Below, piece after piece: positions 6,354-30,800 of a stretch of 64,000 bases of DNA; positions within the stretch are counted from its first letter, which is position 1, and every line of letters starts with the position of its first letter. The stretch is from an uncultured Candidatus Binatia bacterium (lineage in GTDB: Bacteria > Desulfobacterota > Binatia > Bin18): positions 2,528,001-2,592,000 of the forward strand of contig OZ241744.1 of assembly GCA_965200965.1 (NCBI GenBank), given 5' to 3'. Under the pieces are notes generated by a model that was given only the letters and a program-made list of their open reading frames with translations, was not told the origin of the DNA and did not search any database. The position numbers and the translations under genes were made by a program.

Positions 6354-6404
6354 AAGGACGGAGCGTGTCGCCTTCCTCTCGCTCTGATGACACGCTCCGT
6401 CCTT
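6354..6404. repeat. Palindromic element family A (45-bp core 6357-6401), upstream of or in the N-terminus of mgtE
   Basis: Perfect 16-bp inverted repeat AAGGACGGAGCGTGTC/GACACGCTCCGTCCTT with 19-nt loop. Confidence 0.9.
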
Positions 6405-6413
6405 GCATACACC

Positions 6414-7793
6414 ATGACCTCGACTTCGGTCCCTCAAGCGAGTTCTCCTGACCGTGACGCCGCCCTCGCTGACTTGGTGATTGCGGCAGCATCAGGCCAG
6501 GATGAGCGGGTGCGGGCGGGCATTACCAGTCTGCACACAGCCGACATCGCCGAACTGCTCAACCTGCTTGAAGAAGCCGAGACCAAACAGCGGATCTTCG
6601 GTTTTCTGCCGCCTCAGTTGGCCTCTGAGGTGTTGAGCTTTGTTGCCCCGCCCACCCAGGAAATCCTGACCCGGCAGTTGTCCAACGCCGTCCTGGGTAC
6701 GGTGGTTGAACACATCGAATCGGACGATGCGGTCGATCTGCTGGCAACGCTGTCTCCCCAGCGGACCAACGCTGTGCTGGAGCATGTTTCCGAAGACCTG
6801 GCCGCCGATATCAGCCAGCTGATGCGCCATCCCGATGATGTGGCCGGCGGCATTATGCAGACCGAGTACATCGCGGTCGGGGAGGGTGCCCGGGTTGAGC
6901 GGGCAATCGAAACCATCCGCAGCCATGTCAATGAGGTGAGCGATCTGCACAGCGTTTTTATTGTCAATCCGATCGGCAATCTGGTTGGCGTCCTGCCGCT
7001 CAGAAAGTTGATCCTGGCCCGTCCAACCGAGTTGGTTGAACACCTCATGGATCGTCAAGTGATTTCGGTCCGGGTCGATCTTGACCAGGAGGCCGTCGCC
7101 CAGGTGTGTCAGAAATACGATCTGGTGTCCCTGCCGGTGGTGGACGCCGAGGGCAAGTTAGTCGGGTTGATCACGGTCGATGACGTGGTTGACGTGCTGG
7201 AAGAAGAAGCCACCGAAGACATCTATAAGCTGGCCAACCTGAGTCAGGAAGAAGAGGTGTTTGAACCGCCGTGGCAGTCAATTCGGCACCGTCTGCCGTG
7301 GTTGGGGCTCAACCTAATCACCACCAGCCTGAGTGCGGCGGTCATTGCCTTTTTTGAAGACACGATTCGGGCCTTGGCCGTGGCCGCGGCGTTCATGACT
7401 ATCGTCGCCGCCCAAGGCGGCAATGCCGGCATTCAGACTTTGACCCTCACGGTGCGCGGCTTGGCACTGGGCGAGGTGAGCCTGAACCACGCCAGGCGGG
7501 TGTTGTTCAAAGAGTTGAGTGTGGCGCTGGGCAACGGGCTGATCCTGGGCCTCGTGGCCGGGGCGGTGGCGTATCTGTGGGAGGGGAGTCCCCTGCTGGG
7601 CGGGGTGTTAGCCCTGGCGCTGGTCGTCAACTTGGTGGTGGCGGCTGTCGTGGGCAGTATGGTACCATTTTTGTTGGAGCGCTGTGGGGTTGATCCGGCG
7701 GTGGCGTCCAACGTCTTTGTCACCGCCTGCACCGATATTTTTGGCTTCTTTTCCTTTTTGGGAATTCTCGCCCTTTTGTGGGGCTCGGGGTGA
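6414..7793 (+). CDS. mgtE: Magnesium transporter MgtE
   Basis: N domain, CBS pair (AGGIMQTEY; KYDLVSLPVVD), TM domain RLPWL, GGNAGIQT, DPAVAS; frame also open from 6303. Confidence 0.95.
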   Translation: MTSTSVPQASSPDRDAALADLVIAAASGQDERVRAGITSLHTADIAELLNLLEEAETKQRIFGFLPPQLASEVLSFVAPPTQEILTRQLSNAVLGTVVEHIESDDAVDLLATLSPQRTNAVLEHVSEDLAADISQLMRHPDDVAGGIMQTEYIAVGEGARVERAIETIRSHVNEVSDLHSVFIVNPIGNLVGVLPLRKLILARPTELVEHLMDRQVISVRVDLDQEAVAQVCQKYDLVSLPVVDAEGKLVGLITVDDVVDVLEEEATEDIYKLANLSQEEEVFEPPWQSIRHRLPWLGLNLITTSLSAAVIAFFEDTIRALAVAAAFMTIVAAQGGNAGIQTLTLTVRGLALGEVSLNHARRVLFKELSVALGNGLILGLVAGAVAYLWEGSPLLGGVLALALVVNLVVAAVVGSMVPFLLERCGVDPAVASNVFVTACTDIFGFFSFLGILALLWGSG

Positions 7794-7825
7794 GAAACGT
7801 GATAGCCTTTTGTATGAGGAAGACA

Positions 7826-9130
7826 TCACGTTTCGCTTCTACGCTGTCCGGCTCCTGCCGGATGTGTCCCGTTCAGCGCATACTCCACAATGTCAAAGTT
7901 CCGTATACGCGCCCGACTCGCATAGGCATAGGCAACCGGCTCGGAGACAATAAACGGGACGTGCTGCTCGCTGAGCCCGCCGTGTGAGCGGAGGGGGACA
8001 TTGCCGAGCTGGGAGAGATCGTGCTCTGCCGGGCTGGAGCCAAGAACCGTGTTGCGATCTCCGATCACCACCAGGTCGCCCTCGCGGTCGGGCGGCAGGC
8101 CAAACTGCGTACACGCCTGTTCGCGTTCATAGACCGCGGCAACACCGGTCAGGTCTTGCACGACGCTGCCGACTGTGTGAACCGCCAGAGACGGGCAGTA
8201 AACCCGGACAAATGAACCTAGGGCACCGTGATGGACGACATAGGGATCGGTGATGGGGCAGATGACACGGGCCGTGCCAGGTTCAAAATGTTTGTCCAGG
8301 GCCTCTTGCAGAAAAATCACCCGAGGCTTGAAGTTCATGCCATGATCGGCGGTCAGCGCGACCAGGGCTCCTTTTGCGGCAAACTCGCCCAGCCGGGTAT
8401 CCAGGCTGCGATAAAAGGCGTCGGCCCGCGGATGACCTGGGGCGTGTTTATGCTGCACATAGTCGCTCAGGGACAGATACATGAAATCCGGCCGGTCGCG
8501 TTCGAGCAGGCGCAGGCCGGCGTCAAGGACAAACAGCGATACATCCGCCGAGTAGACCTCGGGTTGCTTTCGTCCAACCATGTCAGGGACATGGCTGATA
8601 CCGTTGTCCTCCATAGTACACTTGGCCGCCCGTTCAGCAGAGAAACATACCCCGCCCCTGAGCCGGTGTCCGAGCAGCCGGCGCAGCTTGTCTTTGGCGG
8701 TGATGATCACCACCTTGCAGCCGGCGTGGGACAGGACGGCCGGCAGCGTGTCACACCGTATGTAGGCCGGGTCGTTGAGCATGACCGCCCGGTTCTTGAG
8801 GGGGTCGAAAAAATAATTGCCCGAGATCCCATGCACGGACTGAGGCGTGCCAGTGACAATCGACAGGTTGTTGGGGTTGGTAAAGGTTGGCACTACGGCT
8901 TCGGCAATGGTAGCAAAACCGGTGTCGCAGAAGCCGTGCAGGGTGGGCAGAATCCCGTCGTTCAGTCCCCGCTCAATATAGGCCGGGTCACAGCCGTCAA
9001 CGCACACCACAACCACCGGCCGGCGCGGAACAGCGTAGGTCCGATCCTGCAAACGAACCGTTGGGGTTGAAGCAGTGAACGATTTGCCCGGAAGGTCATC
9101 CTCGTTCACTTTTGCGGGCATGAGCGACAT
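7826..9130 (-). CDS. phnA: Phosphonoacetate hydrolase (alkaline phosphatase superfamily)
   Basis: VVVCVDGC, PTFTNPNNLSIVTG, YLSLSDYVQHKHAPG, TADHGM, LRSHGG. Confidence 0.92.
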   Translation of the reverse strand: MSLMPAKVNEDDLPGKSFTASTPTVRLQDRTYAVPRRPVVVVCVDGCDPAYIERGLNDGILPTLHGFCDTGFATIAEAVVPTFTNPNNLSIVTGTPQSVHGISGNYFFDPLKNRAVMLNDPAYIRCDTLPAVLSHAGCKVVIITAKDKLRRLLGHRLRGGVCFSAERAAKCTMEDNGISHVPDMVGRKQPEVYSADVSLFVLDAGLRLLERDRPDFMYLSLSDYVQHKHAPGHPRADAFYRSLDTRLGEFAAKGALVALTADHGMNFKPRVIFLQEALDKHFEPGTARVICPITDPYVVHHGALGSFVRVYCPSLAVHTVGSVVQDLTGVAAVYEREQACTQFGLPPDREGDLVVIGDRNTVLGSSPAEHDLSQLGNVPLRSHGGLSEQHVPFIVSEPVAYAYASRARIRNFDIVEYALNGTHPAGAGQRRSET

Positions 9131-9216
9131 ATGCTCGGCGAGAAGATCTGGGAGTCTCCCGGCAGGCGACCTGGCCGCAGCACGCTGCGTTGAGCCTCAG
9201 TCTGTCCGGCGCAGGG

Positions 9217-9411
9217 TCAGTCGTCTGTCGGAGGTGTGTGTTCGATTTGGGTCAGGGCGTTTTGAAAAGCTTGAACCGAAACCTGATAGTCGCGCATCAG
9301 GCGACGCACATCAACAAGGTCTTCGGGGCGGGTCCGTAAGTGTTGAACGAGACGGGAAGTTGGCTCCTGTTGTCCAATATCGGAGGAGGCGGAGTTTGCA
9401 TCCGAGTCCAT
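9217..9411 (-). CDS. Small hypothetical protein (64 aa)
   Basis: ATG preceded by AAAGGAG RBS; same strand as and upstream of phnA. Confidence 0.6.
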   Translation of the reverse strand: MDSDANSASSDIGQQEPTSRLVQHLRTRPEDLVDVRRLMRDYQVSVQAFQNALTQIEHTPPTDD

Positions 9412-9834
9412 AAATACTCCTTTCTGGCCGATGAATTTGTGTCGAGGCGTACCTTAGCAGATACGCCGCCACGCCGCAAAGAGGAGACGGTGAACCGCGG
9501 GGTATTCGGCCGATTTTGTGACGACAGACGCAGGGCGAGCACACTGCCGCAAGCACTGATATATCAGAAGCCTGGGGGGCGGATGAGCTGTTTGTTACAA
9601 ACATATGACAATTCAGTGAAAACACAAGTGTGTTTGTCATCATTCCGGGTGCTGAGTCTGGCCGGGTGCAACACACATTCTGAGGAACAGCAGGCTGCGC
9701 GATCCGCGAGAAGGTGGGGGCGTCAGGTACTGCTGGCTGAGTAAGGTTCACATAATAAGAAAGACTAATGTTTTATTAAATTTTAATTCTTTTCAACTTA
9801 TATTCCAATTTCTTCCGTGTCTGCTATATTCGGG

Positions 9835-9929
9835 AAAGTCGGTTCCCGACATGCATCGTTGAGAGCTCCCCAACTCGACGACAGCATAAGCCCGCAGGTT
9901 TCCCCTCCTTTTTCCTGCGGGCTTTTTTT
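9835..9929 (+). ncRNA. Candidate small RNA (hairpins with C-rich loops, ending in an intrinsic terminator)
   Basis: AT-rich upstream region and TATATT at 9825-9830; stems 9851-9887 and 9888-9924, then a T run. Confidence 0.5.
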
Positions 9930-9992
9930 GCCTGGACCGTTACTGGCATGTCAGATGGAAATTGGTGACTTCGCTGATGGAGGGAAAAGTGT

Positions 9993-11678
9993 ATGACGCT
10001 GCCACGCCGACAGTTTTTGCGCTATCTGGGGATAGGAAGCTACGCGGCGCTGTGCCATCCGCTGCGCCTCGCCGCGGCTGCGCCAAGAACAGGCGGCTCG
10101 GTCTGGAAGCCGGATTTTTTTGATCCCATCTCTCCCAGCACTGCCGACCGGCTCAGGCTGCCGACCGGCTATCGCTCTGACCTGCTCGGCGTGTGGGGCG
10201 ACAAGTTGGGCCTTCCCGACCCGGCCCACGCACTGACCTTCGGTCATAACAACGACTTTCTGGCCTATTTCCCGCTTGCCTCCCGGCAGGACGACCTCCT
10301 GGCCGAGCAGGGATTGCTGTGGGTCAACCACGAGTATCCCAACCCGCTGTTTGTCAGCGGCTACAGCCGTGCGGACGCCGAGGCCGACACGCCTAAAACC
10401 GCGGAGCAGATACAGGCCGAAAAGCGCAGTGTGGGCGGCAGCGTGCTACACCTCAGACGGCAGGCGAACGGACGCTGGAAGCGCGAGTATCATCCCCGCT
10501 TTACCCGCCGCTTCACTGCCTGCGGCCCCCGTATTGGTTTTGATGGGCCGGCAGCCGAAGCTGTCGCCAGCCTGAGTGGCAGCCAGGACTGCCCCGGTAC
10601 GCTGGCCAACTGCTCGGGCGGTGTCACGCCTTGGGACAGCGTGCTGTCGTGCGAAGAAAACTACCAGTTCTACAATTCCAGATTGCGGTGGCGGGATCAG
10701 CCCGACGAAGCCATTATTGCAAAGCAGTTCGGCTGGGTGGTTGAGGTAGACCCCTTTGGCGAACTGCCGCCGGTCAAGCACACCAGCCTGGGCCGCTTCA
10801 GCCATGAGAATGTCGCCCTGCGCTGGGCCGGGCCGGCCGGCCGGTTGGTGGTCTATATGGGTGACGACCGGGCCGGTGAATTTGTGTACAAGTTTGTCAG
10901 CGCCCAGCCGTTTTCCGCCTCGGTCCCACGGCTTGAGCAGCGGGCGGCGCTGAGCCAGGGGACCTTGTACGCTGCCGACTTTCAGCGTGGCAGGTGGCTG
11001 GCGCTGGACTGGGAGAAGAACCGCGACAAGTGGCAGCAGTACAACACAGGGCGGAGAGAAAACGAACCGGCCATCACCTCGCAGGCCGATATTCTCATCC
11101 ATACCCGGGTTGCGGCGCGTGTCCTGGGAGCAACGCCCCTGGACCGGCCCGAGGACTGTGAAATCCATCCGGCCGACGGTTCAGTGTATATTGCGCTGAC
11201 CAATAATACCGGGCGGGGCAACTTCTACGGCCAGATTGTGCGGCTGATGGAAGACAACGATAATCCTGAGGGAGAGCGCTTTCGGTTTGAGCTGTTCCTG
11301 CTCGGCGGACGCGAGAGCGGCTTGGCCTGCCCCGATAATCTGGCCTTTGACAGGCGGGGAAACTTATGGGTGGCGTGCGATATCGGAAGCTCCCAGCTAG
11401 GGCAAGACCCGTATCAGGCGTTTGGCAACAACGGGCTGTTTGTCGTGCCCACCACCGGCCCCGGAGCCGGCCAAGCCTGGCAGTTCGCATCCGGTCCCAT
11501 CGGCTGTGAACTCACCGGCCCGTGGTTCAACCCCAACGACCGGACGCTGTTCCTGTCCGTTCAGCATCCGGGAGAAAACAGCCCCAGCCTCGACCGGCTG
11601 TCGAGCCACTGGCCACACGGCGGTCAGGACCTCCCCCGCCCGGCTGTGGTGGCCATCACCGGCTTTGAGCGGTCTTGA
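9993..11678 (+). CDS. phoX: PhoX-family alkaline phosphatase, Tat-exported
   Basis: PRRQFL twin-arginine signal; NHEY, NCSGG.TPW, SCEEN, DRPED, CELTGP, SVQHPGE. Confidence 0.93.
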   Translation: MTLPRRQFLRYLGIGSYAALCHPLRLAAAAPRTGGSVWKPDFFDPISPSTADRLRLPTGYRSDLLGVWGDKLGLPDPAHALTFGHNNDFLAYFPLASRQDDLLAEQGLLWVNHEYPNPLFVSGYSRADAEADTPKTAEQIQAEKRSVGGSVLHLRRQANGRWKREYHPRFTRRFTACGPRIGFDGPAAEAVASLSGSQDCPGTLANCSGGVTPWDSVLSCEENYQFYNSRLRWRDQPDEAIIAKQFGWVVEVDPFGELPPVKHTSLGRFSHENVALRWAGPAGRLVVYMGDDRAGEFVYKFVSAQPFSASVPRLEQRAALSQGTLYAADFQRGRWLALDWEKNRDKWQQYNTGRRENEPAITSQADILIHTRVAARVLGATPLDRPEDCEIHPADGSVYIALTNNTGRGNFYGQIVRLMEDNDNPEGERFRFELFLLGGRESGLACPDNLAFDRRGNLWVACDIGSSQLGQDPYQAFGNNGLFVVPTTGPGAGQAWQFASGPIGCELTGPWFNPNDRTLFLSVQHPGENSPSLDRLSSHWPHGGQDLPRPAVVAITGFERS

Positions 11679-11689
11679 ACGGGCCGCCT

Positions 11690-12043
11690 TCAGGGCCGTG
11701 TGTCGGCTTTCGGTATGACCCGGGGATGCTCATACCCTTTGGGCGGTTTCCGGCAGCCCCACTGCCAGGACGGCGTATCCTGCAAGGCTCGCTCAAGCTC
11801 GTCCATGTCGTCATCCCCGAGCTGGGTGGGAAAATAGTCGGATAAAATTCGGCGTGCTCTCGACAGTTTGTGCCAGATGTTCCACTGGTCAAGAAACTCG
11901 ACGGTCGTCTTGTCGCAGCCCTCTTGCCCGAGTTCTGCATAACAAGAGCCAATACGGTCCAACGACACCACGACAGTCTCCAGGGTGCTCAGCACCTCAA
12001 TCAGGTCCGCCTTTTTTATGCTCAAGCGTTCTTCCGTTTGCAT
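11690..12043 (-). CDS. Hypothetical protein, probable immunity protein
   Basis: Small acidic ORF directly downstream of the toxin-like gene, GAGGG RBS; function inferred from position. Confidence 0.55.
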   Translation of the reverse strand: MQTEERLSIKKADLIEVLSTLETVVVSLDRIGSCYAELGQEGCDKTTVEFLDQWNIWHKLSRARRILSDYFPTQLGDDDMDELERALQDTPSWQWGCRKPPKGYEHPRVIPKADTRP

Positions 12044-12053
12044 GTCACCCTCG

Positions 12054-13541
12054 TCAGTCTCTCTGCACGACCTCTGCGCGCTTTGGGTCAAGGCGAATAT
12101 CACCGGATATCTTCCACTCCTTCCTCCGAGTCACCGGATTATATACCTCTTTAACCTGTGTGCCTTTTGGGGCTTCGAATACGACATAATCGCGGCCGCG
12201 GCCCGGCCTCAGACCAAGTGCATCTTCTGCGTCAGCTCGTGACAATACCCGCTCTCTCGCTGGCACAACGAAGACCGTGTTCCGTTTATCGGCCTTGATA
12301 ACCCCCTCCTTTGCAATGGCATTTGACCCTTTCCTGTTCGTGTAGTGTCTGAGGGCACGGGGACCTTTGATATGTTTGCCGCCGCGCGTGACAATTTTGA
12401 TCAAAGGTTTCCCGCCCGGAATTACGCTGCCAGCGAGCCCTACCAGGGCCATTGGTTTACTCACCAGTTCATCCGTTACCGGGTCCTTGCCGCTGACCAA
12501 TTCGACGACAGACTTCCCAAAGCCCAACCCGGGTGTAAGGTCCGCGAGAAGACTGAATACCTGTTTCTCCAGCGGTGGAGTTGTGGACGGTGGCGGCAGT
12601 GCAGGCCGGCCCGGAGGAGGTACAACAGAGGGAGGAATTGTGGTCAAAGTATCTGTTCGCCCCCGCTTGGGCGGCAGTGCAGGCCGGCCCGGAGGAGGTA
12701 CAACAGGGCTGAGATCGGCAGGAACGATTGCTGTAACGCTCCCGGTATCCAGCGGCCGGCAGCGGTCTCCTCCCAAGTCACAGCGGAGTGGAGGCAATCC
12801 GGCTGCGATTTGGCGAAGTTGACTTCTCATCTGGGCCGCCTCTTTGACATCGGCCAACGGCTCAGTGGCTTCGCGGATAACCTGCTGCATCTCAATGAGC
12901 CGGCACGTTCCGTCTTTGCAGACTTCAATGGTGCCCTGATACTGCTCCCGCATATGCCAGCCGTCTTGGGGCGGTGTGGAGTCGGTCGGGGTTTGGTTGG
13001 CAGGCGCGGTCTCGGGTGGCGTTTGGCCGGTGGCCGTGGTCTCAGGCGGTGGCGACTCAGGGACGAATTCTTGAGCCAGGGCGAGAGTCAAGGAGACAAC
13101 TTGCAGGAATTTGGCCCAGGCGTGTAGCGGCTCGTCCTGTTTGGCCAAGTCAATGACGCGGGCCAATTCCTCATCGAGTTCTGCGCGTCTCTCAGCGAAT
13201 TCTTTGTGTATCTCAGCGGATTCTGCATACAGTTCACGCCACCTTTGGCGGTCGGCTTCCAGGGGAGCCACCACTTCTTGCGTCTCGGCGCGGAGCTTGG
13301 CGTCTCGGAGCCTTTGCCTGGCCTCTCTGGCTTGCCCGGCTTCCCTTTCAGCCGTACCCAGCGGATCCTCGCGGTATGACGGTGGAAGATTTTCCTTGAG
13401 GGCCTTGTCGGCAGCATCGATATTTAATGTAAATCGCGGTGTGGCGACGCCGGGACTGCCAGCCAACACGATGCCGATCAGCATCACGCCGGCGATGCCA
13501 CGGCAGGGCAGAGGGTGCAGGGGTGAGATGATTGAGGTCAT
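12054..13541 (-). CDS. Putative secreted polymorphic toxin (signal-like N-terminus, coiled coil, pre-toxin TG-like segment, C-terminal HYD1-type ADP-ribosyltransferase-like domain)
   Basis: LADLTPGLGFGKSVVELVSGKDPVTDE resembles PT-TG; LRHYTNRKGSNAIAKEGVI resembles the Tox-ART-HYD1 N-terminus. Confidence 0.65.
   Translation of the reverse strand: MTSIISPLHPLPCRGIAGVMLIGIVLAGSPGVATPRFTLNIDAADKALKENLPPSYREDPLGTAEREAGQAREARQRLRDAKLRAETQEVVAPLEADRQRWRELYAESAEIHKEFAERRAELDEELARVIDLAKQDEPLHAWAKFLQVVSLTLALAQEFVPESPPPETTATGQTPPETAPANQTPTDSTPPQDGWHMREQYQGTIEVCKDGTCRLIEMQQVIREATEPLADVKEAAQMRSQLRQIAAGLPPLRCDLGGDRCRPLDTGSVTAIVPADLSPVVPPPGRPALPPKRGRTDTLTTIPPSVVPPPGRPALPPPSTTPPLEKQVFSLLADLTPGLGFGKSVVELVSGKDPVTDELVSKPMALVGLAGSVIPGGKPLIKIVTRGGKHIKGPRALRHYTNRKGSNAIAKEGVIKADKRNTVFVVPARERVLSRADAEDALGLRPGRGRDYVVFEAPKGTQVKEVYNPVTRRKEWKISGDIRLDPKRAEVVQRD
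12592..12706. repeat. 37-bp perfect direct repeat (12592-12628, 12670-12706) encoding VVPPPGRPALPP
   Basis: GGCGGCAGTGCAGGCCGGCCCGGAGGAGGTACAACAG occurs twice. Confidence 0.95.
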
Positions 13542-13572
13542 ACGTTTTCCTCTTTACTCCTGGTGAGGAGTG

Positions 13573-14763
13573 TCAGTAACAAGGGGGGCAGCACCAAGAA
13601 TTGTACTTAGTGTGGGGGCGCAAATACGAGGGAGGCCGTTTGTAGACGTATCGCCGGATATCAGTTTCAAGATCTTTCCAGTACGGATCGAAAGGAGAGT
13701 TCCTCCCATTCATCTTTGCCATTGCTAGAAGGTCCGGGGCCGGATGCTGACCCAGCACCTTGAGGATGCCTTCAGCGATGGAGAACAAGACTATCGCGAT
13801 TTCCTCCCTGTGCTCACGAACGCGGGTGTTCTTTCGAAATGAGTTCAGCAGTGTATGTAGTTCATCCTTGATATCGGACCAGACCACGCGCGTGCAAACA
13901 GTGAACCAAGTCGAGATGCCCACATGACAGTTGGAACCTTCTCTCCCGGAGTCAATGCCCTGTCCTTCTACTGCACAGGTGCTGCGGGGGGGGGGGGTAT
14001 GATAGCTTAGCTGCAGATCCCGGAAACGGCGTTGCCATGAGGAGAGCTCATCTTGATCAGCATACCAGAGAGCCTTAAATTGAGAATAAATCGATCCCTG
14101 TCTTGTCTCGCTGATGGCTTGTCGGAAGTACACCTGGTATGCTTTAGTGCGCTGTTCTATCTCGATTTCTTCAGCTTCCAGGCCCTTACCCAGGCCCTTA
14201 AGAAGAGCGATCTCGTAGGCCATCCCAACCAGGATAAGGGGGGCGTTCAAATACCCACGCTTCATCAGCGTCCTGGTCTCGGTCTGCAATTCCCTGAGGC
14301 GATCTCTGGGGTCAGTAGAAAGCTCTCCGCCCTCCCGTATAACAGTAAAGTCCTCGACGATCAGGTCTACTATTCCAAGGACCCGAGCCTGCTGAAATTC
14401 GTCAAGAGCATCTCTGAGCTCCTTCCGCATAATCTCGGGCAATGCATCAAGTTTGTGCAGGGCCTCCTCCATCGCCTTGCCAAAATTATCAAACCGCTCA
14501 TGCAGTTGACCGATCAATTTGTGGTTCTGCAAGATCGCTTGGTAATTCTGCTGGTTCAACTCTCGGATCTGCCTAATCCTTTCCGCGGTTGGGTCTGCGC
14601 CGGATGTGAAGAGAGACAGTACGGTACTCATAAGCGACACCCCAATCACCGCTATTGTGAGTGGCTCAGCGCCGTTCAGCCGGGGCGGGTGCAGCAATGA
14701 CGTACCATAGATGAGGCAAACTGCTGCGAAAACAAGGCGATAGCGGCGTGCAACCTGTGTCAT
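13573..14763 (-). CDS. Hypothetical exported or membrane protein (signal peptide, hydrophobic helix, coiled coil, Cys-rich C-terminus)
   Basis: Long ORF, visibly more AT-rich than flanks; likely start MTQVARR. Confidence 0.7.
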   Translation of the reverse strand: MTQVARRYRLVFAAVCLIYGTSLLHPPRLNGAEPLTIAVIGVSLMSTVLSLFTSGADPTAERIRQIRELNQQNYQAILQNHKLIGQLHERFDNFGKAMEEALHKLDALPEIMRKELRDALDEFQQARVLGIVDLIVEDFTVIREGGELSTDPRDRLRELQTETRTLMKRGYLNAPLILVGMAYEIALLKGLGKGLEAEEIEIEQRTKAYQVYFRQAISETRQGSIYSQFKALWYADQDELSSWQRRFRDLQLSYHTPPPRSTCAVEGQGIDSGREGSNCHVGISTWFTVCTRVVWSDIKDELHTLLNSFRKNTRVREHREEIAIVLFSIAEGILKVLGQHPAPDLLAMAKMNGRNSPFDPYWKDLETDIRRYVYKRPPSYLRPHTKYNSWCCPPCY

Positions 14764-14907
14764 GGTTGGGAATCCTGTTCGTGGTCGGCCCATCCAAGCA
14801 CAGGTCAGGCTTCCCGTCAAGTAATTTTTCTGGACGCACGGCGGAGGTCCTGGCCGTCGAATTTCGGCCCTGGATCGTGCGATGGGCATCACGCACAAAT
14901 AACCGGC

Positions 14908-14941
14908 CTGTCATTCTCCAGTAATAGTGCGTTCTTACCCT
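14908..14941 (+). promoter_or_regulatory. Pho box plus -10 element of the porin-pst operon
   Basis: CTGTCAT-tctc-CAGTAAT, 10-bp spacer, then TACCCT; matches the known PhoB promoter geometry. Confidence 0.7.
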
Positions 14942-14985
14942 CCTGCTGAAGTCTGACCACAGAAGAGGGAAGGAGAAGAACGGAT

Positions 14986-16362: not shown

Positions 16363-16432
16363 ACGCCTATCGCCGGCGGCCAGGGCTGGCCGCCATAGTG
16401 CATCACCATCCCAACGGAAGGGAGTCGTTGTT

Positions 16433-21565: not shown

Positions 21566-21582
21566 AAGAGAGGCACACGCGT

Positions 21583-22437: not shown

Positions 22438-22471
22438 ACGAAGGTGCTCACGATGTCCTCTTTGATGTGAG

Positions 22472-23167
22472 GTGTCTATGCCATTACACACCGACCGACA
22501 GTACGAGGAAGAGTTGCAACAGCTGCGGGCCAAGGTGTTGGAGATGGGCGGGCTGGTCGAAAAACAGATCGGTGACGCAATGATCTCACTCACCGAGCGC
22601 AATTCCGAGTTAGCCAAACAGACGATTACGCGGGACCACATGGTCAACTATCTGGACGTGACGATTGATGAGGCGTGTACCCGCCTGCTGGCACTCCATC
22701 AGCCGGCGGCGCGCGATCTGCGCTTCATCATGACCAGCATGAAAATTGCGACCGACCTGGAACGGATCGGCGATATCGCCCAAAACGTCTGCGAACGGAC
22801 CCTGGAACTGAACAAAGAGCCGCCCCTGCGCCCCTATGTGGACCTGCCGCGTATGGCCGAGTGGGCGCGGTCCATGTTGCGCGACAGCCTCGACGCCTTT
22901 GTCCGCGAGGATACCGAGCTGGCCCTCGATGTGTGTCAACGCGACGATTTCATCGATCAGCAAACGGCCGAGGTATTTACCCGTCTGTTGAGCCGTATGG
23001 CGGAAGAGCCTGGAACCGTCATCCGTTCCGCCCGTATCCTGTTCCTGGCAAAGTACCTGGAACGGATCGCCGACCACGCCACCAACATCGGAGAGATGGT
23101 CGTCTACATGGCCAAGGGCAAGAATATTCGGCATATCTCGCCGGTGCCAAGCTCGGTCTCGCTGTAG
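22472..23167 (+). CDS. phoU: Phosphate signalling protein PhoU
   Basis: QPAARDLR, DLERIGD, YLERIADHATNIGE. Confidence 0.96.
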   Translation: MSMPLHTDRQYEEELQQLRAKVLEMGGLVEKQIGDAMISLTERNSELAKQTITRDHMVNYLDVTIDEACTRLLALHQPAARDLRFIMTSMKIATDLERIGDIAQNVCERTLELNKEPPLRPYVDLPRMAEWARSMLRDSLDAFVREDTELALDVCQRDDFIDQQTAEVFTRLLSRMAEEPGTVIRSARILFLAKYLERIADHATNIGEMVVYMAKGKNIRHISPVPSSVSL

Positions 23168-23186
23168 TGCTCCGCCTGAGTGGGAC

Positions 23187-23909
23187 ATGTCAGACGCTCC
23201 ACGCAAAATCCTGATCGTTGAAGACGAAGAAGATATCCGCAGCCTGGTCCGCTACAATCTGGAGGCCGAGGGCTTTAGAGTTGTAGACGCCAGCGATGGC
23301 GAGCACGGCCTGCGTCTAGCGGACACCGAGCGGCCGGCGCTCATCATTCTTGACCTGATGTTGCCGGGCTTATCCGGGCTGGAGGTGTGCCGTCTGCTGC
23401 GCGCCCAAGAGGACACCGCCCCGGTGCCGATCCTGATTCTGACCGCCCGCGCCGCCGAGCTTGATAGGGTCCTGGGTCTGGAGATGGGTGCCGACGACTA
23501 TGTCACCAAGCCGTTCAGCCCGCGCGAGTTGGTCGCCCGGGTCAAAGCGATTATCCGCCGCTCATACGGCCAGCCGAACGAGCAGCCCCACGAATCGTAT
23601 GAAAAAGGCTGGCTGCGGATCGATTTTGACACCCACGAGGTCAGCCGCGATGACGAGCCGGTGGAACTGGGCCTGCGTGAGTTTGATCTGTTGAAGTTCT
23701 TTGTGCGCAACCCGCGCCGCGTCTTTGGTCGCAGCCAGATTCTCGACCGGGTGTGGGGCCATGACGTGTATGTCGAGCCCCGCACGGTCGATGTCCACAT
23801 CCGGCGGCTGCGTCAACGCATTGAACGCGATGACACCAAGCCGACCTTACTCCTGACCGTGCGCGGGGTCGGCTACAAGTTTAATCCCGATGCCCTGGAA
23901 AACGACTAA
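23187..23909 (+). CDS. phoB: OmpR/PhoB family response regulator
   Basis: Receiver plus winged helix (RTVDVHIRRLR, TVRGVGY) inside the pst operon. Confidence 0.9.
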   Translation: MSDAPRKILIVEDEEDIRSLVRYNLEAEGFRVVDASDGEHGLRLADTERPALIILDLMLPGLSGLEVCRLLRAQEDTAPVPILILTARAAELDRVLGLEMGADDYVTKPFSPRELVARVKAIIRRSYGQPNEQPHESYEKGWLRIDFDTHEVSRDDEPVELGLREFDLLKFFVRNPRRVFGRSQILDRVWGHDVYVEPRTVDVHIRRLRQRIERDDTKPTLLLTVRGVGYKFNPDALEND

Positions 23910-25542
23910 GACCGATCCGCCGATCGCGCATTTCTCCCCCAGCTTTTCCCGACTGAGTGCCGCCATTATCGCTTGGCCGATCCTCGCCTGCCTGGGTCTG
24001 CTGGGCCTGACGGGTTTCTTTGCCCTGCCCGCCCAGAGCCGCCCGGCCTGGCTGTGGTATGTTGGGCTGGGGCTGGGACTGGCCGCACCGCTGGGCGCAG
24101 TCCGCCTGAGCCGACGCCTAGCCAGACGCCTAGCCGACTTCCAGGCTCTCATTACACTCGCCCCAGAACATAGCCCGCCGCCCGCCGCCACGCAAGACGG
24201 AACATATCATCGGATCGAACGGAAGGCGACACATTCCGTCCTTGATGAACTCGGCGCGGTCGAAGACAGCCTGTGCCAGTTTCTCCACGCCCAGCACGAG
24301 CGGTTGCGATGTGTACACGATGCGCGCCACGATCTCGAAGTAGTGCTCCAGAGCATGACCGAAGGCGTCATCGTGTTGGACGCCAACAGCCGCATCCGCT
24401 TCTCCAACCGTGCCGCCCACGCTCTCTTGGGCCTGTCTGAAGAAGCCGACTTCCAGGCCAGACCCCTGTTGGAACTTTCCCGGCATCCCGTTCTCCACGA
24501 CATGGCCCGGGCCGTGCTTGACAGCCCGGCCGGGGCCGAGGCCCTGACCCAGGAGATCGAGATAGAGGGAGAGCAGCCCCGCTTGCTGGCGGTCAGCACC
24601 ATTCAGATGAAGGTCTCAGGTATGGCTTTGAAACCGGGGGTCATTCTGGCTCTGCACGATCTGACCGAACTCAAACAGCTCGAAGCCGTGCGGGCCGACT
24701 TTGTGGCCAATGTCTCGCACGAGCTGCGCACGCCGCTGACCGCCATCAAGGGCTATGCCGAGACCCTGCTGAACGGCGTACTCAACGACCCCCCTGTTGC
24801 AACACGCTTTCTGGCCATTATCGACCGTCACTCCGAGCGTCTCAGCCGGCTGATTGACGACCTCTTAACCCTGTCCGATCTTGAGCGGGGCAAAACCGAA
24901 CTGCGCCGCGACACCATCGTGTTCAGCCACCTGCTTGACGAGGTGTTCGAGCTGGTCAAAGACAAGGCCGCCAGCGGTCAGGTGCGGCTGAACGCTGCGC
25001 TGCCGGCCTCCCTCCCCTTGCTGTGTGGCGACGCCGACCGGCTCCACCAAGTCTTGCTGAACCTAGTTGACAACGCCGTCAAATATACCCCCTCGGGCGG
25101 GCGGGTGACGGTCTCCGCGCGTGCGTCCTGTCTTCCTCCTGGCGACCGGCCCGTCCTGGCGGAAACCCCAGACCCGACCGCGGATGCTGAGCATCATCTG
25201 AATCCACAAGAACTCAGCGAGGACGGAACGTGTCGCCGTCATGTCAATCTGATGACACGTTCCGTCCTCGCCCACTTTGACAGCACGGGCTGGCTGGAGG
25301 TGGCGGTTGTCGATACCGGCTGCGGCATTCGCGCAGCCGATATTCCACGCCTCACCCAGCGCTTTTACCGGGTTGATAAGGCTCGCTCACGCGAACTGGG
25401 CGGGACCGGCCTCGGCCTGTCGATTGTCAAACATATTGTGCAGGCCCACGGCGGATTTTTTCATATCGAGAGCCAGCTCGACCAAGGAACGACGATGCGG
25501 GTCTTTTTGCCGCTCGGCAACAAACCCAACTCAGGACGCTGA
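23890..25542 (+). CDS. phoR: Phosphate sensor histidine kinase with repeat-derived inserts
   Basis: PAS domain, DFVANVSHELRTPL, NLVDNAVKY, RFYRVDKARSR, GGTGLGL. Confidence 0.92.
   Translation: MPWKTTKTDPPIAHFSPSFSRLSAAIIAWPILACLGLLGLTGFFALPAQSRPAWLWYVGLGLGLAAPLGAVRLSRRLARRLADFQALITLAPEHSPPPAATQDGTYHRIERKATHSVLDELGAVEDSLCQFLHAQHERLRCVHDARHDLEVVLQSMTEGVIVLDANSRIRFSNRAAHALLGLSEEADFQARPLLELSRHPVLHDMARAVLDSPAGAEALTQEIEIEGEQPRLLAVSTIQMKVSGMALKPGVILALHDLTELKQLEAVRADFVANVSHELRTPLTAIKGYAETLLNGVLNDPPVATRFLAIIDRHSERLSRLIDDLLTLSDLERGKTELRRDTIVFSHLLDEVFELVKDKAASGQVRLNAALPASLPLLCGDADRLHQVLLNLVDNAVKYTPSGGRVTVSARASCLPPGDRPVLAETPDPTADAEHHLNPQELSEDGTCRRHVNLMTRSVLAHFDSTGWLEVAVVDTGCGIRAADIPRLTQRFYRVDKARSRELGGTGLGLSIVKHIVQAHGGFFHIESQLDQGTTMRVFLPLGNKPNSGR
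24196..24240. repeat. Palindromic element family A, in frame in phoR
   Basis: GACGGAACATATC...GACACATTCCGTC, 45 bp, encodes DGTYHRIERKATHSV. Confidence 0.9.
25217..25271. repeat. Palindromic element family A (core 25222-25266), in frame in the phoR ATPase domain
   Basis: Perfect 18-bp inverted repeat; encodes DGTCRRHVNLMTRSV. Confidence 0.92.
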
Positions 25543-26334
25543 GCGCTCGAGCGCTTGCAAAATTAAACCCGCCGCCCCCGATTCCCCCCACACGCTCGCA
25601 TCGATCAGCAGGTGATAGCGGCTCGGGTCACGCCAGTCCCCGTGGTAGAAGGTGTGAACATAGTCGCCGCGCAGCCGGTCCATGCCGGCGATCCGTTGCG
25701 CGGCTTCGTCACCCGACAGGCTCTCAATTTCCATCACCCGCTCAATACGCGCCTGGAGCGGGGCGGTGAGAAAGATGTGCAGGGCGGCGGGCTGCCCGGC
25801 CAGCACATAATTGCCGCCCCGGCCAACAATAATCGCCTGTCCGCCCTCGGCCACCTCTTCAATCAGCGACCGGGTCATGCGGACGAGCTGAGCGTCGTTG
25901 AGCCACAGCGGCGGTGGAATGTCGTAGGCCGATTCAAAGCCACCCATGCCGAACAGCCCGACCATGCGCTCAATAAAGGAATCGACCCGTTCGTCCTTGG
26001 CGTCCACATACTCTTCCGACACCTTGTACTGGCTGGCGATTTTACGAACGATTTCTTTTTCCCACACGGTCCAGCCCAAACGCTGGCCGAGGGCACGGGC
26101 GATACGGTTCCCGCCGCTGCCGTACATATGAGAAATGGTCAGGACCGACTTAGTGCCGCAAAGACACCGAGGAGTGAACGTGTCATCAGAGCGACATGAC
26201 GGCGACACGTTCACTCCTTTCGGCCTGTCTTCCTCTTGGCGAGCGGGTGGTGCGATTGGTCTTTGAGCCATAGCGGCCTCCTTCACAGCGGGGATGTTCT
26301 CAGCCAGAGAGCGGTCATCGGTCTCTTGAGACAT
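25531..26334 (-). CDS. Cytidylate kinase-like family protein
   Basis: LTISHMYGSGG, IIVGRGG, R...Y...Y..DW.DP..YHL.ID; N-terminal extension is repeat-derived and the start is uncertain. Confidence 0.85.
   Translation of the reverse strand: MSQETDDRSLAENIPAVKEAAMAQRPIAPPARQEEDRPKGVNVSPSCRSDDTFTPRCLCGTKSVLTISHMYGSGGNRIARALGQRLGWTVWEKEIVRKIASQYKVSEEYVDAKDERVDSFIERMVGLFGMGGFESAYDIPPPLWLNDAQLVRMTRSLIEEVAEGGQAIIVGRGGNYVLAGQPAALHIFLTAPLQARIERVMEIESLSGDEAAQRIAGMDRLRGDYVHTFYHGDWRDPSRYHLLIDASVWGESGAAGLILQALERSAS
26170..26246. repeat. Family A element (core 26172-26216) next to a family B core (26224-26246)
   Basis: 15-bp perfect inverted repeat AGGAGTGAACGTGTC/GACACGTTCACTCCT, then CCTGTCTTCCTCTTGGCGAGCGG. 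Confidence 0.85.
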
Positions 26335-26401
26335 GTCTTAGCACGACACGCCGGCAAGGCGAACGCTGCTCTCTTTCTGATCAGGGCGTCCACCTTGGGC
26401 A

Positions 26402-26992
26402 TCAGCAGCGCAGTCCCCTTGCGATAAGATAGGTTTCTGCCGAGCTTTTGCGCGTGGCCTGGGGTTTCGTCGTCCTGACCGTGGCAAAGCGGGTACGCAG
26501 GTCTGCCAGCAAAGCCCTATGGTTGCTGTCCATAAACGCTTTGAGCAGCAGGGCACCGCCCGGTCTGAGCAGGCCGGTGGCGCAGGCGAGGGCGGCCCGG
26601 CTGAGTTCCTGGACACGCGCCTCGTCACGCTCACGGACGCCGCTCAGCTTTGGGGCCATATCAGACAGCAGCATATCGGCCGGTCGGCCAAGCAGGACGA
26701 GTAACCGGCGTTGTTGGTCCGGGTCGGTGGCGTCGCCCTGGACCACAATCACATTGTCTACTTTGAGGGGGTCAATGGGTACCAGGTCAATGCCGATGAC
26801 CTTGCCCCGGGGGCCGACTCGCTCAGCCGCCACCTGGAGCCAGCCGCCGGGCCAGGCACCGAGATCAATGACCCGCTGGCCAGGCCGCAGCAGACCAAAG
26901 TCGTGGCTGAGTTCGCGCAGCTTATAGGCGGCCCGTGAGCGATAGCCGGCCTGCTTGGCCTTGTGATAGAGGGCGTCTTTGCGCTTGTACAC
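26402..26992 (-). CDS. rlmE: 23S rRNA Um2552 methyltransferase
   Basis: GYRSRAAYKL, DLGAWPGGW, SDMAP, KP.ATRKSSAETY. Confidence 0.95.
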   Translation of the reverse strand: MYKRKDALYHKAKQAGYRSRAAYKLRELSHDFGLLRPGQRVIDLGAWPGGWLQVAAERVGPRGKVIGIDLVPIDPLKVDNVIVVQGDATDPDQQRRLLVLLGRPADMLLSDMAPKLSGVRERDEARVQELSRAALACATGLLRPGGALLLKAFMDSNHRALLADLRTRFATVRTTKPQATRKSSAETYLIARGLRC

Positions 26993-27001
26993 GCGGTGCT
27001 G

Positions 27002-27820
27002 TTACTGTGGTGCCATCCGAATCGCGCCGTCGAGACGGATGGTCTCTCCGTTCAACATCACGTTTTCCACGATATGACAGGCCAGCGCGGCGTATTCGGC
27101 CGGCGTGCCTAGGCGCTGGGGAAACGGAATACTGGCACCGAGGGACTGGCGGGCCACTTCGGGCAAATCCATCAGCATCGGGGTTTCAAAGATCCCCGGC
27201 GCAATTGTACAGCAGCGGATGCCGTCCCGGGCCAAGTCACGGGCAATCGGCAAGGTCATGCCCACCACCCCGCCTTTTGAGGCCGAGTAGGCCGCCTGTC
27301 CGATCTGGCCGTCGAAGGCGGCAACCGAGGCGGTGTTGATGATCACGCCCCGTTCGCCGTCCGCGGTCGGCTCGTTTTTGGCCATCTGGGCGGCGGCCAG
27401 CCGGATGGTATTGAAGGTTCCGATCAGGTTGACCTCGATTGTGCGTCTGAACGGCCCGAGAGCCAGGGGCGTGCCTTGAGGACGGAACGTGTCACCTTCC
27501 GTTCGATCTGGTGACACGTTCCGTCTTTTGCCCAGGGTCCGGCCGGCGGTCGCAATACCTGCGCAGTTGATGAGCGCGTGGATGGTGCCAAAGGCGGCGA
27601 CCGTCTTGTCAATGGCCGCTGCGGTCTGGTCTTCGTCGGTCACGTCGGCCTCAAGAAACCTCGCGCTCTCGCCCAACTCATGGGCGAGCTCTGCCCCGCG
27701 TGAACGGCCAAGGTCAAGGATGGCGACCTTGGACCCTCTGGCCGTCAGGGCGCGGCTCGTGCCCTCGCCGAGTCCGGAGCCGCCCCCGGTCACAACAGCA
27801 ACGGTGTTCTGTATATCCAT
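27002..27820 (-). CDS. SDR family 3-hydroxyacyl-CoA dehydrogenase (HSD17B10-like)
   Basis: [32 protein letters not shown]. Confidence 0.93.
27481..27525. repeat. Palindromic element family A, in frame in the SDR gene
   Basis: Perfect 16-bp inverted repeat; encodes [15 protein letters not shown]. Confidence 0.93.
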
Positions 27821-27847
27821 ACGTCTCTCCTCTCAGTGTCCTGCGCG

Positions 27848-30800
27848 CTATCCAGGCTGCTTTCTCAATCCCACCCGCTGATAGACTTTGGGCAGCTCGG
27901 TCGGCAGCGAGGCCACATCGTCAAGCACCAGGTAGCGCGACGGTTCACACATTTCGCGCAGATAATCGTGGCCGGCTTTATCAACCGTCAGACAGAAGGT
28001 CAGCACGCCGGCCTTTTCGGCTTCGCGCAGGGCCACCATTGTATCCCGAATGCCATAGGTCGTAGAGCGCCGGTCCGGGCCGTAGTCCATGTCTTGGGGA
28101 AAGCCGTCGCTCAGCAGGATCAGCAGCTTGACCCGGCAGGCCATATTTTTGAGCTTTTCCAAGGCATGTCGCACCGCGGGTCCCATCCGGGTTGAGCGCT
28201 TGGGTTCGATGGCCCCGATGCGCCCTTTGACGGTCGGCGACAGGGCCTCGACAAACGACTTGACGTGGTAGAACTCGATGTTGTCCCGGCCCTGGCCTGA
28301 GAAACCATAGATGGCGTAGGAATCGCCGATCTCTTCAAGCGCCTCAGCCATCAGTACCAGGGTCTCTTTGGTGACATCAATAATGCGGCGCGGTTTGGGC
28401 TGGGCCGGGGGCGGGTCGTGCCTCGGCCAGTCATCAGCTTCTTCGTCGCTGTAGTCGCGCGCAGGCGGGACGAGCGGCTCGTCGGTTGAGGCGCTCATGT
28501 CGAGCAGAAAGAGGGCGGCCACGTCGCGTTCGGTCTGCCGGCGTTCGGTGTACAGCTTGGCCGAGGGGGGGCAGCCGGCGCGCCTGTCAACGGCCGCGGT
28601 GACTGCGGCGTTGAGGTCAAACTCGTGGCCGTCTTCAAGGCCGCGCACCAGCCGGTACTGTTCCGGTCGGATGCGTTGGAACTCGTGTTTGATGGCCGGG
28701 GTCAGGGCCGTGTAGTCGCTGAGCGTCCGAGAAAAAAACTCGCCGGCGTCGCCGGCCAGCACGATCTCTCGCAGCCGACACCAGCGGGTCCGGTAGTCGG
28801 CGATCTGATAGTCCCACTCGTCATAGTAAAAGCTCAGGTCTTCCTGGTGCCCGACGCGGCGCTGACCGCCGGCACGCGCCGCGTCATTTCCCACGGCGGT
28901 GTGCTTCATTTCGCTCTGGCCCGGCAGTTTTCCGTTCAAATCGCTGGCGTACAGCCCTTGGGGGGTGAGCCTGTCCTGTTTGCCCTGACGAATCTGGAGC
29001 TCAAGGCCGGCCTCGATCAAGGCTTTGAGTTCTTCGGCTGACAGGGGGCTGCCGCCCGTGTCCTCCTCCATTTCGTCTTCTAGCTGTAACTCGGGTATCT
29101 CGGGCGGCGCTTGGGCCGGCGGCGGACTGTCGTTATTATCCATGTCCGGGTCAATCAGAGCGTCACCGCTCAGTTTGTCAAAGACGAGGGGGCCAAAGTC
29201 CGCAGCCTCGTCCGGGTTGGGGCGGGCGGTGGCCAGTGAGGACAGAAGCCGCAGGTAGAGCGTGGCCGCGGTCAGGGCCGAGTCGTACACCGACTGCTGC
29301 AGGTCTGCCGCGGCCGGCAGATCTGACCACAACGATTTCAGGGAGACCAGGGTTTCTGGCAGCAGCGAGGGCAGAGACAAGGCGTTCAGCCACGCCACAT
29401 CTGCGCTCAGACCCCGATACGCCGCGGCCAAGCGGGCTTGAATACGTTGGGTCTCGGTCAGCACAAACAGCGCTTCAACAATGTCGGGATGGACAAAGCA
29501 GCGAAAATACTCGGCCAAGCCGCCCAGAGGACGGAACGTCTCGCCTTCCGTTCGATCTGATGACACATTCCGTCCTTCCGGAGCCGCGTCGTCGCGCATG
29601 ATGCGGCGGACCGCGGCCGGCAGGTCTGACCACAGCCGGCTGAGTGAGAACTGGTAGGTGCCGAACTCGCGGCGGCCGGCCTGCTGAGCGGCCAGGGCGC
29701 GAAACAGCCGAAAGTTTTCGTCCCAGGTCTCAAACATCTCAACCCGGCCCGGCAGGGTCAGCTCTTCGCTCGGGGCTTCTTCAAGCACGGGCGGGTAGGA
29801 GAAAAACTCCTGGCGTCGAATGCCGACCGGGGTGCCGGTCAGCATCTGGATGTATTTGCGCAGCAGTTCCTGGACCTCTTCAAGATCAATGCCCGCCGAT
29901 GCTTGGCGCAGGACCTGAAAGCTGGTGCGTGACTCCAGGGCAAAATAGGCCACCCCGGCCTCGGGGTTGTCGGCGGCAATGCGTGCGCCTGTTGCCAGCC
30001 ACTCCTGGAGACCGGCGTCACTGGTTTCTTCACAGACCCGGGGCAAGGTCCGAATCAGCCGCGGGATGGCGGCCGGAAAGGTATTGGCCAAGCCGAGCAG
30101 GCTGTGTTGCAGGGCTGGCTGCCCGGCCAAGTCAATGGTCTTGGCCACCGGTCCCAGCAGAGGCAGCAGGCCGGGGACCGTATGCGGGTCTGAACAAATC
30201 ACCGGGGCCAGGGCGAACAGATAAAAAGACCGCAGGGCTGGACTGAGACTCGCCAGGGTCGGCGGCAGGCCAAAAAAAATCTCTGTCGCCGCCGGGGCAG
30301 ACCGGTCGGCGGCCTGTTGGACGGAGAGCAGAAACGCCAGGCGTTGGGACTGACTCAAGGCTATGAAACCGTCGGGCAGACGGGTATAGAACATCTTTGA
30401 CCCAGATTCTTGGACCAGGACGCCGAGTTTTGCCCAAGCCGCTATTTCCTCGGGACTCAGAACTGGCAGAGCGGCCGCGGCCGACGAGAAGTAGGACACG
30501 GCCAGAAACTCGCCCTTCCAGCCGTTGCAGCCCAACAACAGCCGGCCCTGCTCGGCCCAGGCGCGCAGGCGTAGCCCAAAGGGGACCGGCAGCTGGTCAA
30601 AAAGCGGGGCCGAGGCTTGAAAGAACTGCGTCCCAAGGCGACGCGAGACCCGGAGAACGTCGCGCCCAACAGCGACCCATTCTTCGGCCCGTTCGAGACC
30701 GCGCCGCCGGACCGAGTCGGGTGGAATCGCAAAATAGGCGAGCGCACCGTCGCGTGAGGCCGGCTCGTGCCCGGCCAGGTCTTCGCCAATTGCCGCCCAG

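Follow-up and report, generated by a model that had tools for sequence, protein, structure and literature searches.

The window analysed here, a stretch of 64,000 nucleotides (positions 2,528,001 to 2,592,000 of contig OZ241744.1), is part of the single-contig genome (3.62 Mb, 61.5% GC) of an uncultured Candidatus Binatia bacterium, referred to below as G000, and it carries six copies of a short palindromic element, five of which lie in coding frames. The best overall explanation of this element, to which we give a probability of roughly one half, is that it is a blunt-inserting, non-autonomous hairpin that would move by single-strand peel-and-paste and survives neutrally where it falls in frame within genes. 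The parts of this reading differ in strength: the identity of the element and its passive in-frame survival are highly probable, and a peel-and-paste chemistry of the HUH type is tentative, a little short of an even chance. A preliminary description, made from the letters of the window, had proposed a mobile, non-autonomous palindrome with in-frame insertion, and empty sites of exact length, 94 copies in the genome, successive waves of insertion and intact host genes bear this out.

All six copies were found at the places given for them in the preliminary description, which had defined a 45-bp core with 13-bp arms and a 19-nt loop. The loop length stands, and the unit proves longer: the arms run 3 bp further on each side, giving a 51-bp unit with 16-bp arms that adds 17 codons, not 15. 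The strict 13-bp-arm pattern has an exact match in only two of the six copies (and none in 100 shuffles). The ends of the element read R-A-R-G...C-Y-T-Y and are paired. Folded as single-stranded DNA, four of the six copies have z-scores of -6.3 to -7.1, and two decayed copies have -1.7 and -1.8. All six belong to subfamily A of the family delimited below; G007 is the closest carrier genome, a congener of G000 whose phoR region is 86-87% identical.

6354..6404, + strand: subfamily A, 51 bp; 5' leader of mgtE, with the conserved Met at 6414; probably untranslated
24193..24243, - strand: subfamily A, 51 bp; in frame in phoR, antisense to the gene, at about residues 101-118; arms partly decayed
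25219..25269, + strand: subfamily A, 51 bp; in frame in the HATPase region of phoR, residues 444-460; G007 empty, with a 51-nt gap
26169..26219, - strand: subfamily A, 51 bp; in frame at the N-terminus of a cytidylate-kinase-like gene, nested in an older subfamily B remnant
27478..27528, + strand: subfamily A, 51 bp; in frame in an SDR/3-hydroxyacyl-CoA dehydrogenase gene, residues 99-115; predicted low-confidence loop after beta-4
29527..29577, + strand: subfamily A, 51 bp; in frame in a NorD-like VWA gene, residues 474-490; blunt, no duplication

The four peptides and four reading frames first quoted for these copies are correct, as is the placement of four copies in conserved coding regions. 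The other two had been assigned to possible N-terminal extensions. The A copy in the cytidylate-kinase-like gene lies downstream of a conserved start at 26271 with a Shine-Dalgarno-like site and is therefore in the coding frame as well. The mgtE copy stops 9 nt before a methionine kept in all three relatives that cover the N-terminus; its most likely place is the 5' leader of the gene, and the proposed extension of MgtE is not upheld.

Alignment with orthologues, which the preliminary description had suggested as a check, revealed gaps of 51 nt. In the NorD-like VWA gene the site is empty in 7/7 relatives, and the gap is 51 nt in every one. At the SDR copy the gap is 51 nt in six of seven relatives and 48 nt in one. 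The phoR copy at 24193 shows a net gap of 39 nt in 6/6 relatives, for which a 12-nt deletion beside the copy would account. Target-site duplications, also looked for, were absent, and the cut is blunt at the ends of the 51-mer. Scored more widely, 73 A copies were compared with 1.2 Mb of G007 DNA, where 33 have no orthologue; among the other 40 sites, 35 are empty in G007 (17 by exactly 51 nt), two are shared and three unclear.

A hidden Markov model (HMM) iterated from the six window copies recovered the 94 copies genome-wide at a cut-off of E<=1e-3, with none in the reversed genome used as a control. Sister subfamilies B and C were added through de novo hairpin scanning and two further seeds, so that 176 copies without overlap are counted at E<=0.05 (by best score 79 A, 51 B and 46 C). 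A copies are 51 bp, B copies 54 and 51 bp, and C copies mostly 52 bp; all subfamilies have arms of ~16 bp and a loop of 19-22 nt that opens with a Y-C-T-T-C-C motif. B sites are empty in G007 in 9/22 cases and shared in 11/22, C sites are empty in 1/11 and shared in 9/11, and C is the sole type (32/32) in 320 kb examined from three other congeners (G004, G005 and G006). From these patterns of sharing with G007 and the other congeners, the order of the waves is C first, then B, then A. The A wave probably came after the split from G007 (median synonymous divergence, dS, 0.22) and before the present strains diverged. Consistent with the latter, contigs of strains ~1.3-2.4% diverged carry all 5 of the window copies that they span and all 9 in a second 20-kb region, and no 51-nt presence/absence difference was among the indels listed for seven sequencing runs in two regions, contigs being prone to drop rare variants. 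Several of the runs covering the region, all of one study, carry the label sponge metagenome, and no RNA run was among those listed.

The family was found in few relatives. A covariance model of the element matched 14 of 61 genomes, namely G000, 7/7 congeners, 6/10 of a second genus and 0/43 others, so that the carriers make up two genera, both in one Binatia family; 150 further genomes drawn from the phylum gave no match. The second genus carries 54-bp copies with near-perfect arms. A decayed copy of this type is found in G000 itself (~3271105-3271160, - strand) and hints at exchange or an older shared wave. Within G000, neighbouring copies share variants: nearest neighbours differ at 10.7 of 51 positions, compared with 12.5 when permuted (p=2e-4), which suggests local hopping. 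Copies also peak near the GC-skew minimum, at 37 per 200 kb; the replication origin was placed by GC skew only, dnaA not having been located. No Rfam family reached its gathering threshold in 20 loci, where six weak matches all fell far below it. Two other identities were rejected: the element bears no relation to any of the five CRISPR repeats of G000, and it does not fit the features of an integron attC site, having no bulges and boundaries that are not at GTT. The CRISPR arrays themselves are five in number with five different repeats (at ~1.69, 2.07, 2.22, 2.82 and 3.37 Mb), some extending over 9-13 kb.

To describe how the copies fare in genes, we called genes with our own hexamer model, on which all counts of coding sequences (CDS) rest. 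Among the 176 copies, 75 lie wholly in CDS (a share inside genes of ~43%); a further 9 are located at the edges of genes, 29 fall in open frames upstream and 63 in intergenic DNA. A copies are read in five of the six frames, and the consensus has a stop in the sixth. Length matters: of the 142 copies that have 11 or more of the 16 pairs, those whose length is a multiple of three (3n) are in CDS in 54/106 cases, as opposed to 8/36 for other lengths (p=0.003). Two points weigh against leaning heavily on this contrast. The gene calls behind it come from the hexamer model just mentioned, and a cruder test based on long open reading frames (ORFs) in five genomes gave a weaker effect (65/136 vs 24/80, p=0.015; random background 255/400).

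The host genes remain under purifying selection, somewhat relaxed. In each of the 42 host genes scored, dN/dS stays below 0.66; the median is 0.28 against 0.21 for 642 other genes, the host-gene values being inflated by shared insert residues. Inserts common to two genomes diverge by 21% in the stems and 18% in the loops, and their flanks by 11%, against a median dS of 0.22; in these resident copies single changes broke 45 pairs, and 3 pairs were compensated. Because shared inserts diverge at about the synonymous rate and their pairs are broken rather than compensated, old inserts appear to decay about neutrally. The SDR protein provides a structural example. Among its best 120 homologues, with its own cluster left out, 119 are 245-270 aa long and the great majority 254-256 aa. 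In an AlphaFold model built from 90 sequences (mean pLDDT 82.9), which replaced a first model from five sequences (pLDDT 61), confidence falls below 50 only in the C-terminal tail and at residues 101-111; these belong to the insert, which lies between beta-4 and the next helix. Solved structures exist for homologues. An inserted 17-residue loop is thus likely to be harmless to host proteins, and the evidence points to the peptides, if made, being tolerated passengers rather than useful additions. The names of host genes used here and below were judged from sequence or Pfam. A Cas3-like gene (G000 2840128-2842941) carries three copies of the element.

Inside genes the antisense orientation is preferred beyond the effect of stop codons (sense 11/43, 18.6 expected), and between co-directional genes there is no orientation bias (A 11/12, B 10/9). 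Since the bias is missing between genes, we attribute it to probable selection for hydrophilic peptides. An alternative is that copies are kept for a host function, as an RNA structure, a regulatory site or a part of the protein, and were spread via an RNA intermediate or recombination. This would accommodate the antisense preference, the loop motif conserved across subfamilies and genera, and the clustering near the GC-skew minimum. Resident copies that decay at about the synonymous rate, the unbiased orientation of A and B between co-directional genes and the lack of an Rfam family at threshold all speak against it, and the sole reverse transcriptase of G000, which looks defence-type and has a premature stop, speaks against an RNA intermediate. 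We consider a host function very unlikely as the reason for the spread. The reverse transcriptase gene (2404925-2406298, L277) lies in an AT-rich island and is open in G007.

Filled and empty sites also allow the cut to be placed. An offset of 0 fits best (weight 8.7 of 22 and 2.2 of 5): the cut coincides with the symmetric end of the 51-mer, and nothing is duplicated. In 101 of 107 A and B sites from G000 and G007, up to ~13 of which are common to the two genomes, a C stands at position -4, 5' of the cut, on one strand or both (55.7 expected, p=5e-22). This C(-4) was the strongest of 40 offset/base pairs tested. It is present on both strands at 28/107 sites, where ~31 would be expected if the second side were random. 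Our first reading of the flanks, a dyad target with C at -4 and G at +4, was overturned by a negative association between these positions (odds ratio 0.13, p=2e-5), which makes the target rule one-sided. The second genus gives the same picture, with C(-4) in 23 of 27 sites (13.6 expected), on both strands in three, and C or T at -1 in 18/20; the 27 are top-scoring matches with some orthologous places among them. At the other end of the unit, a C at element position 48, that is -4 from its own 3' end, is 95% conserved, the 3' end reading C-C/T-T-T/C on either strand. As both element strands end C-Y-T-Y, a cut at the right end also agrees with the C(-4) rule.

The stem also covaries strongly from copy to copy. 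Covariation is seen at 15 of 16 pairs and 92% of cells pair, a level reached in 0/500 shuffles, although related sequences inflate this figure. Because the stem covaries across copies yet resident copies lose pairing, selection for pairing likely acts when the element is copied and not on resident copies. The terminal pair is mostly G..T or A..C, which are mutual reverse complements (39/51 A copies, p=2e-4). A 2-bp YR target duplication was considered as the source of these ends and rejected, being absent from flanks and empty sites.

These properties bear on whether the element is a miniature inverted-repeat transposable element (MITE), moved as double-stranded DNA by cut-and-paste through a lost, blunt-inserting insertion sequence (IS) transposase of the IS110/IS1111 or IS607 type, or a DDE enzyme that leaves no duplication. 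Terminal inverted repeats of 16 bp, near-perfect in the second genus, would suit this, as would the absence of replication-strand bias described below and the use of both loop orientations. The arms, however, vary widely and covary instead of being conserved like protein-binding sites; the target rule is one-sided rather than a dyad; and 51 bp would be very short for synapsis of double-stranded ends. IS110 is absent in four of five genomes, among them G000, G007 and G047; no multicopy transposase or IS was recognised among the self-matching proteins of G000; and element pairs within 2.2 kb in this genome flank ordinary genes, with no unpaired arms bracketing a gene. Cut-and-paste as a MITE is therefore, in our judgement, quite unlikely.

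Since the C(-4) rule fits both the flank and the element's own 3' end, it points instead to a single-strand peel-and-paste like that of IS200/IS605. In this scheme one strand would fold into the 15-16-bp stem, and a trans-acting HUH strand-transferase of the Y1 type, which was not found in G000, would make its cuts 3' of C-N-N-(Y), one in the left flank and one at the 3' end of the element itself. The cut strand would circularise and be pasted 3' of another C-N-N-N, often nearby. Only well-paired copies would be copied on, which may be why compensatory changes in the arms are found among copies and not within resident ones. Many insertions into genes would keep the frame, since both lengths, 51 and 54, divide by three and stops can be absent from five of the six frames, and they would persist where a surface loop tolerates the insert.

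Several observations weigh against this chemistry. Replication-strand bias is not seen (A 38/41, B 24/27, C-bearing strand 28/26), although IS200/IS605 elements favour the lagging-strand template (10.1101/279083). An IS200/IS605 element carries a different hairpin at each end, with guide tetranucleotides, and ours is one symmetric hairpin. With respect to the target C, both loop orientations occur (45 vs 28); this demands that loops be inverted in place, and among 29 shared-site comparisons there is one clear inversion. The overlaps within the site samples given above reduce the independent support for C(-4), a rule of one base is in any case weak specificity, and copies that the second genus carries within DUF559-linked repeats violate it. 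No mobiliser came to light in the genomes and loci examined. The link to RAYT transposases raised in the preliminary description found no support: Y1_Tnp is absent from G000 and G007, and although it is present in 11/21 relatives and 18/28 genomes of the second genus, none of 30 Y1 loci and 23 more is a Y1 gene flanked by the element. Nor were any of 12 small GIY-YIG loci of relatives or 29 TIRYT loci flanked by it. A search for Y2_Tnp gave no match, positive controls likewise remaining unmatched. As for the loops, one insertion site has opposite loop orientations in two genomes (L252:7932 in G005, L267:5308 in G006), likely by inversion in place between the arms; an apparent flip at G000:2804518 was an artefact.

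One special case of the HUH model is that the element is a tail-to-tail dimer of terminal inverted repeats (TIRs) of the TIRYT type (HuH subclass 2.1), with a TIRYT transposase as its mover. Of 55 genomes of the family, 13 have TIRYT genes, dimers of TIRs have been described (PMC3733652), and TIRYT TIRs (of the GGGGTCAG.. and GGGGACGTT..CTTT types, with pyrimidine-rich outer flanks) match the arms at ~11 of 16-17 positions, a resemblance that we picked out visually from several TIR types and two orientations. On the other hand, 0/8 genomes of the genus have a TIRYT match, and the TIRYT core GGGGWSAS is conserved where the arms of the element vary. Patterns joining an arm to a TIRYT start gave nine matches in 301 genomes of the class, of which one was opened and proved to be chance, and three in metagenome contigs, all chance. 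We regard a TIRYT origin as unlikely. In the TIRYT genes of other Binatia genera (L172-L200), the TIRs seem to overlap promoter-like and stop-codon positions.

The DUF559-linked copies raise another possibility, that a hairpin-specific nuclease without strand transfer, either DUF559/Vsr-like or an Ssn GIY-YIG enzyme, frees or targets the hairpin, which host repair then ligates. In the second genus, five of the eight closest DUF559 loci, and one more, hold 54-55-bp copies inside REP-like repeats around the DUF559 gene, and these copies occupy equivalent sites with different loop variants and in both orientations. The preference for a G..T or A..C terminal pair would also fit, DUF559 being an enzyme that we take to be Vsr-like; Vsr reads G:T mismatches. 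Ssn nucleases, for their part, cut near their own hairpin repeats (PMC11893778). Yet DUF559 is absent from G000 and G007, as are the main DUF559-type repeat motifs from G000; the only GIY-YIG protein of G000 is UvrC; a genome with six DUF559 matches (G049) has no element; the DUF559-linked sites break the C(-4) rule; and the element falls outside the SRM consensus (4-5-nt loop, CGTC tag). Because G000 lacks both the DUF559 gene and the main repeat motifs and the linked sites violate C(-4), it is more likely that these copies hitch-hiked on a repeat that was amplified later, and we hold the nuclease explanation to be of low probability. A literature search on DUF559 with repeats found nothing relevant. 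Several DUF559 loci (L286, L287/L325, L326, L328, L329 and L331) hold REPtron-like arrays of REP-like hairpins, with the element at the 3' foot of one hairpin.

In its boldest form, the peel-and-paste reading would make this a minimal, single-hairpin element, moved without scars by an undescribed single-strand transferase that needs one C four bases before the cut. We think this possible and lean against it. If true, the length of the element changed repeatedly (52, 54, 51 bp), and the 3n waves seeded dozens of Binatia core proteins with loops of 17-18 residues; the enzyme would represent a new class of near-sequence-independent, scarless tool for in-frame insertion, and might also explain the movement of elements like those of Rickettsia.

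Behaviour of this kind is known from the Rickettsia palindromic elements (RPEs), and that the element is a real new family of the same kind is well supported. Like RPEs, it is a lineage-restricted palindrome found in frame in unrelated housekeeping genes, where it adds a peptide (PMC10969869, PMC3733652); the features of that functional class found here are a dispersed palindromic repeat in many copies, in frame in unrelated conserved genes, with 17-18-aa gaps in orthologues. The published descriptions set it apart: RPE-1 is ~150 bp and RPE-4 and RPE-6 are CGTC-tagged (PMC10969869, PMC3733652). The Binatia element measures 51-54 bp and consists of a single long stem closed by a 19-22-nt loop; it is read in five frames, its blunt cut has been measured, and its target rule is one-sided. 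No paper describing this repeat was found in a search that did not cover subscription papers and supplements.

Other bacteria too have intragenic repetitive extragenic palindromic (REP) sequences (PMC3733652). The element resembles REPs and REPINs with TnpA-REP (RAYT), and the CGTC/SRM repeats, in being a short hairpin with 100+ copies that spreads near existing copies and is partly intragenic, and all are presumed to be processed as single strands by HUH or Ssn enzymes (PMC3733652, PMC8266576, PMC11893778). Unlike REPs, it has no unpaired GTAG or CGTC tag, CGTC occurring only inside the stem of some variants. Its stem is 15-16 bp, compared with 5-13 in REPs (8-9 in the CGTC type), and its loop 19-22 nt, compared with 4-5 for CGTC (PMC3733652). 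It also occurs as single units rather than doublets, and no REPtron (a RAYT or Ssn gene flanked by the repeat) was found in the loci examined.

IS608 inserts 3' of a tetranucleotide that is kept in the left flank, and its right cleavage site lies inside the element (PMC5934647). With this IS200/IS605 element ours shares the lack of a visible duplication, insertion 3' of a short motif, a matching motif at its own 3' end and dependence on a hairpin (PMC5934647). It differs in using only C(-4) with a weak Y(-1) in place of a full tetranucleotide (PMC5934647), and no TnpA with the element's ends was seen in the loci examined. Likeness to TIRtrons lies in the TIR-like 16-bp arms ending CTTT, the dimer-like build and the presence of TIRYT genes in the same family of bacteria (PMC3733652, PMC6006769); GGGGWSAS is not conserved, however, and none of the loci examined has a TIRYT gene with the element's arms. 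Classical MITEs such as RUP, ERIC and NEMIS share a non-coding origin, terminal inverted repeats and the need for a trans-acting enzyme, and differ from the element in their 70-300-bp size range, target-site duplication and arms that are fixed rather than covarying (PMC10969869, PMC3733652). The element belongs to none of the GTAG/CGTC REP, SRM/Ssn, TIRtron and classical MITE families.

How protein-coding palindromic elements move has been open since the Rickettsia RPEs. What is new here is an exact cut, dated waves, a contrast between length and coding placement, and a one-sided target rule, replicated in the second genus, through which the mechanism can be tested. The many filled and empty orthologous sites in near-complete genomes allow the cut, the lack of duplication and the C(-4) rule to be read directly, and the sister subfamilies, 51, 52 and 54 bp long, serve as a natural experiment in which length modulo 3 affects the colonisation of genes. 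Dozens of core enzymes (ProRS, ThrRS, DnaX, AddAB, MurF, AroB/K and Cas3) carry dated, apparently neutral inserts of 17-18 residues, whose positions mark loops that tolerate insertion. Gene starts and alignments in these genomes can also be misjudged because of the inserts.

Besides the six A copies, the window contains the following members of the sister subfamilies.

5496..5547 (limits approximate), + strand: subfamily C, 52 bp; outside called genes; common to G007 and G004
25124..25160 (end approximate), + strand: subfamily B, decayed; in phoR; common to G007
26220..26267 (limits approximate), + strand: subfamily B remnant, decayed; in the cytidylate-kinase-like gene, an A copy having inserted into it
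34550..34600, + strand: subfamily B; in frame in a TPR protein gene
40520..40573, + strand: subfamily B, 54 bp; in frame in a histidine-phosphatase gene, 18 aa; common to G007, empty in 4/4 other congeners
40902..40955, + strand: subfamily B, 54 bp; in frame in the prolyl-tRNA synthetase gene, 18 aa; common to G007, empty in 4/4 other congeners
47480..47533, - strand: subfamily B, 54 bp; in frame in anmK, 18 aa; common to G007, absent from other congeners
53894..53944, + strand: subfamily B, 51 bp; in frame in an AddA-like helicase-nuclease gene

The AddA-like gene (53339-56917, - strand) holds at least three inserts of different subfamilies, at ~53894, 53995 and 56320-56375. Elsewhere in the window, a 495-aa ORF (12054-13541, - strand) has Pre-toxin TG and Tox-ART-HYD1 domains and looks like a polymorphic toxin; a 37-nt direct repeat at 12592 and 12670 falls within this ORF region. 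Outside the window, G000 carries at least 26 paralogues (~90% identical) of a membrane protein of ~1,100 aa, in tandem arrays at 0.27-0.31 and 1.13-1.17 Mb.

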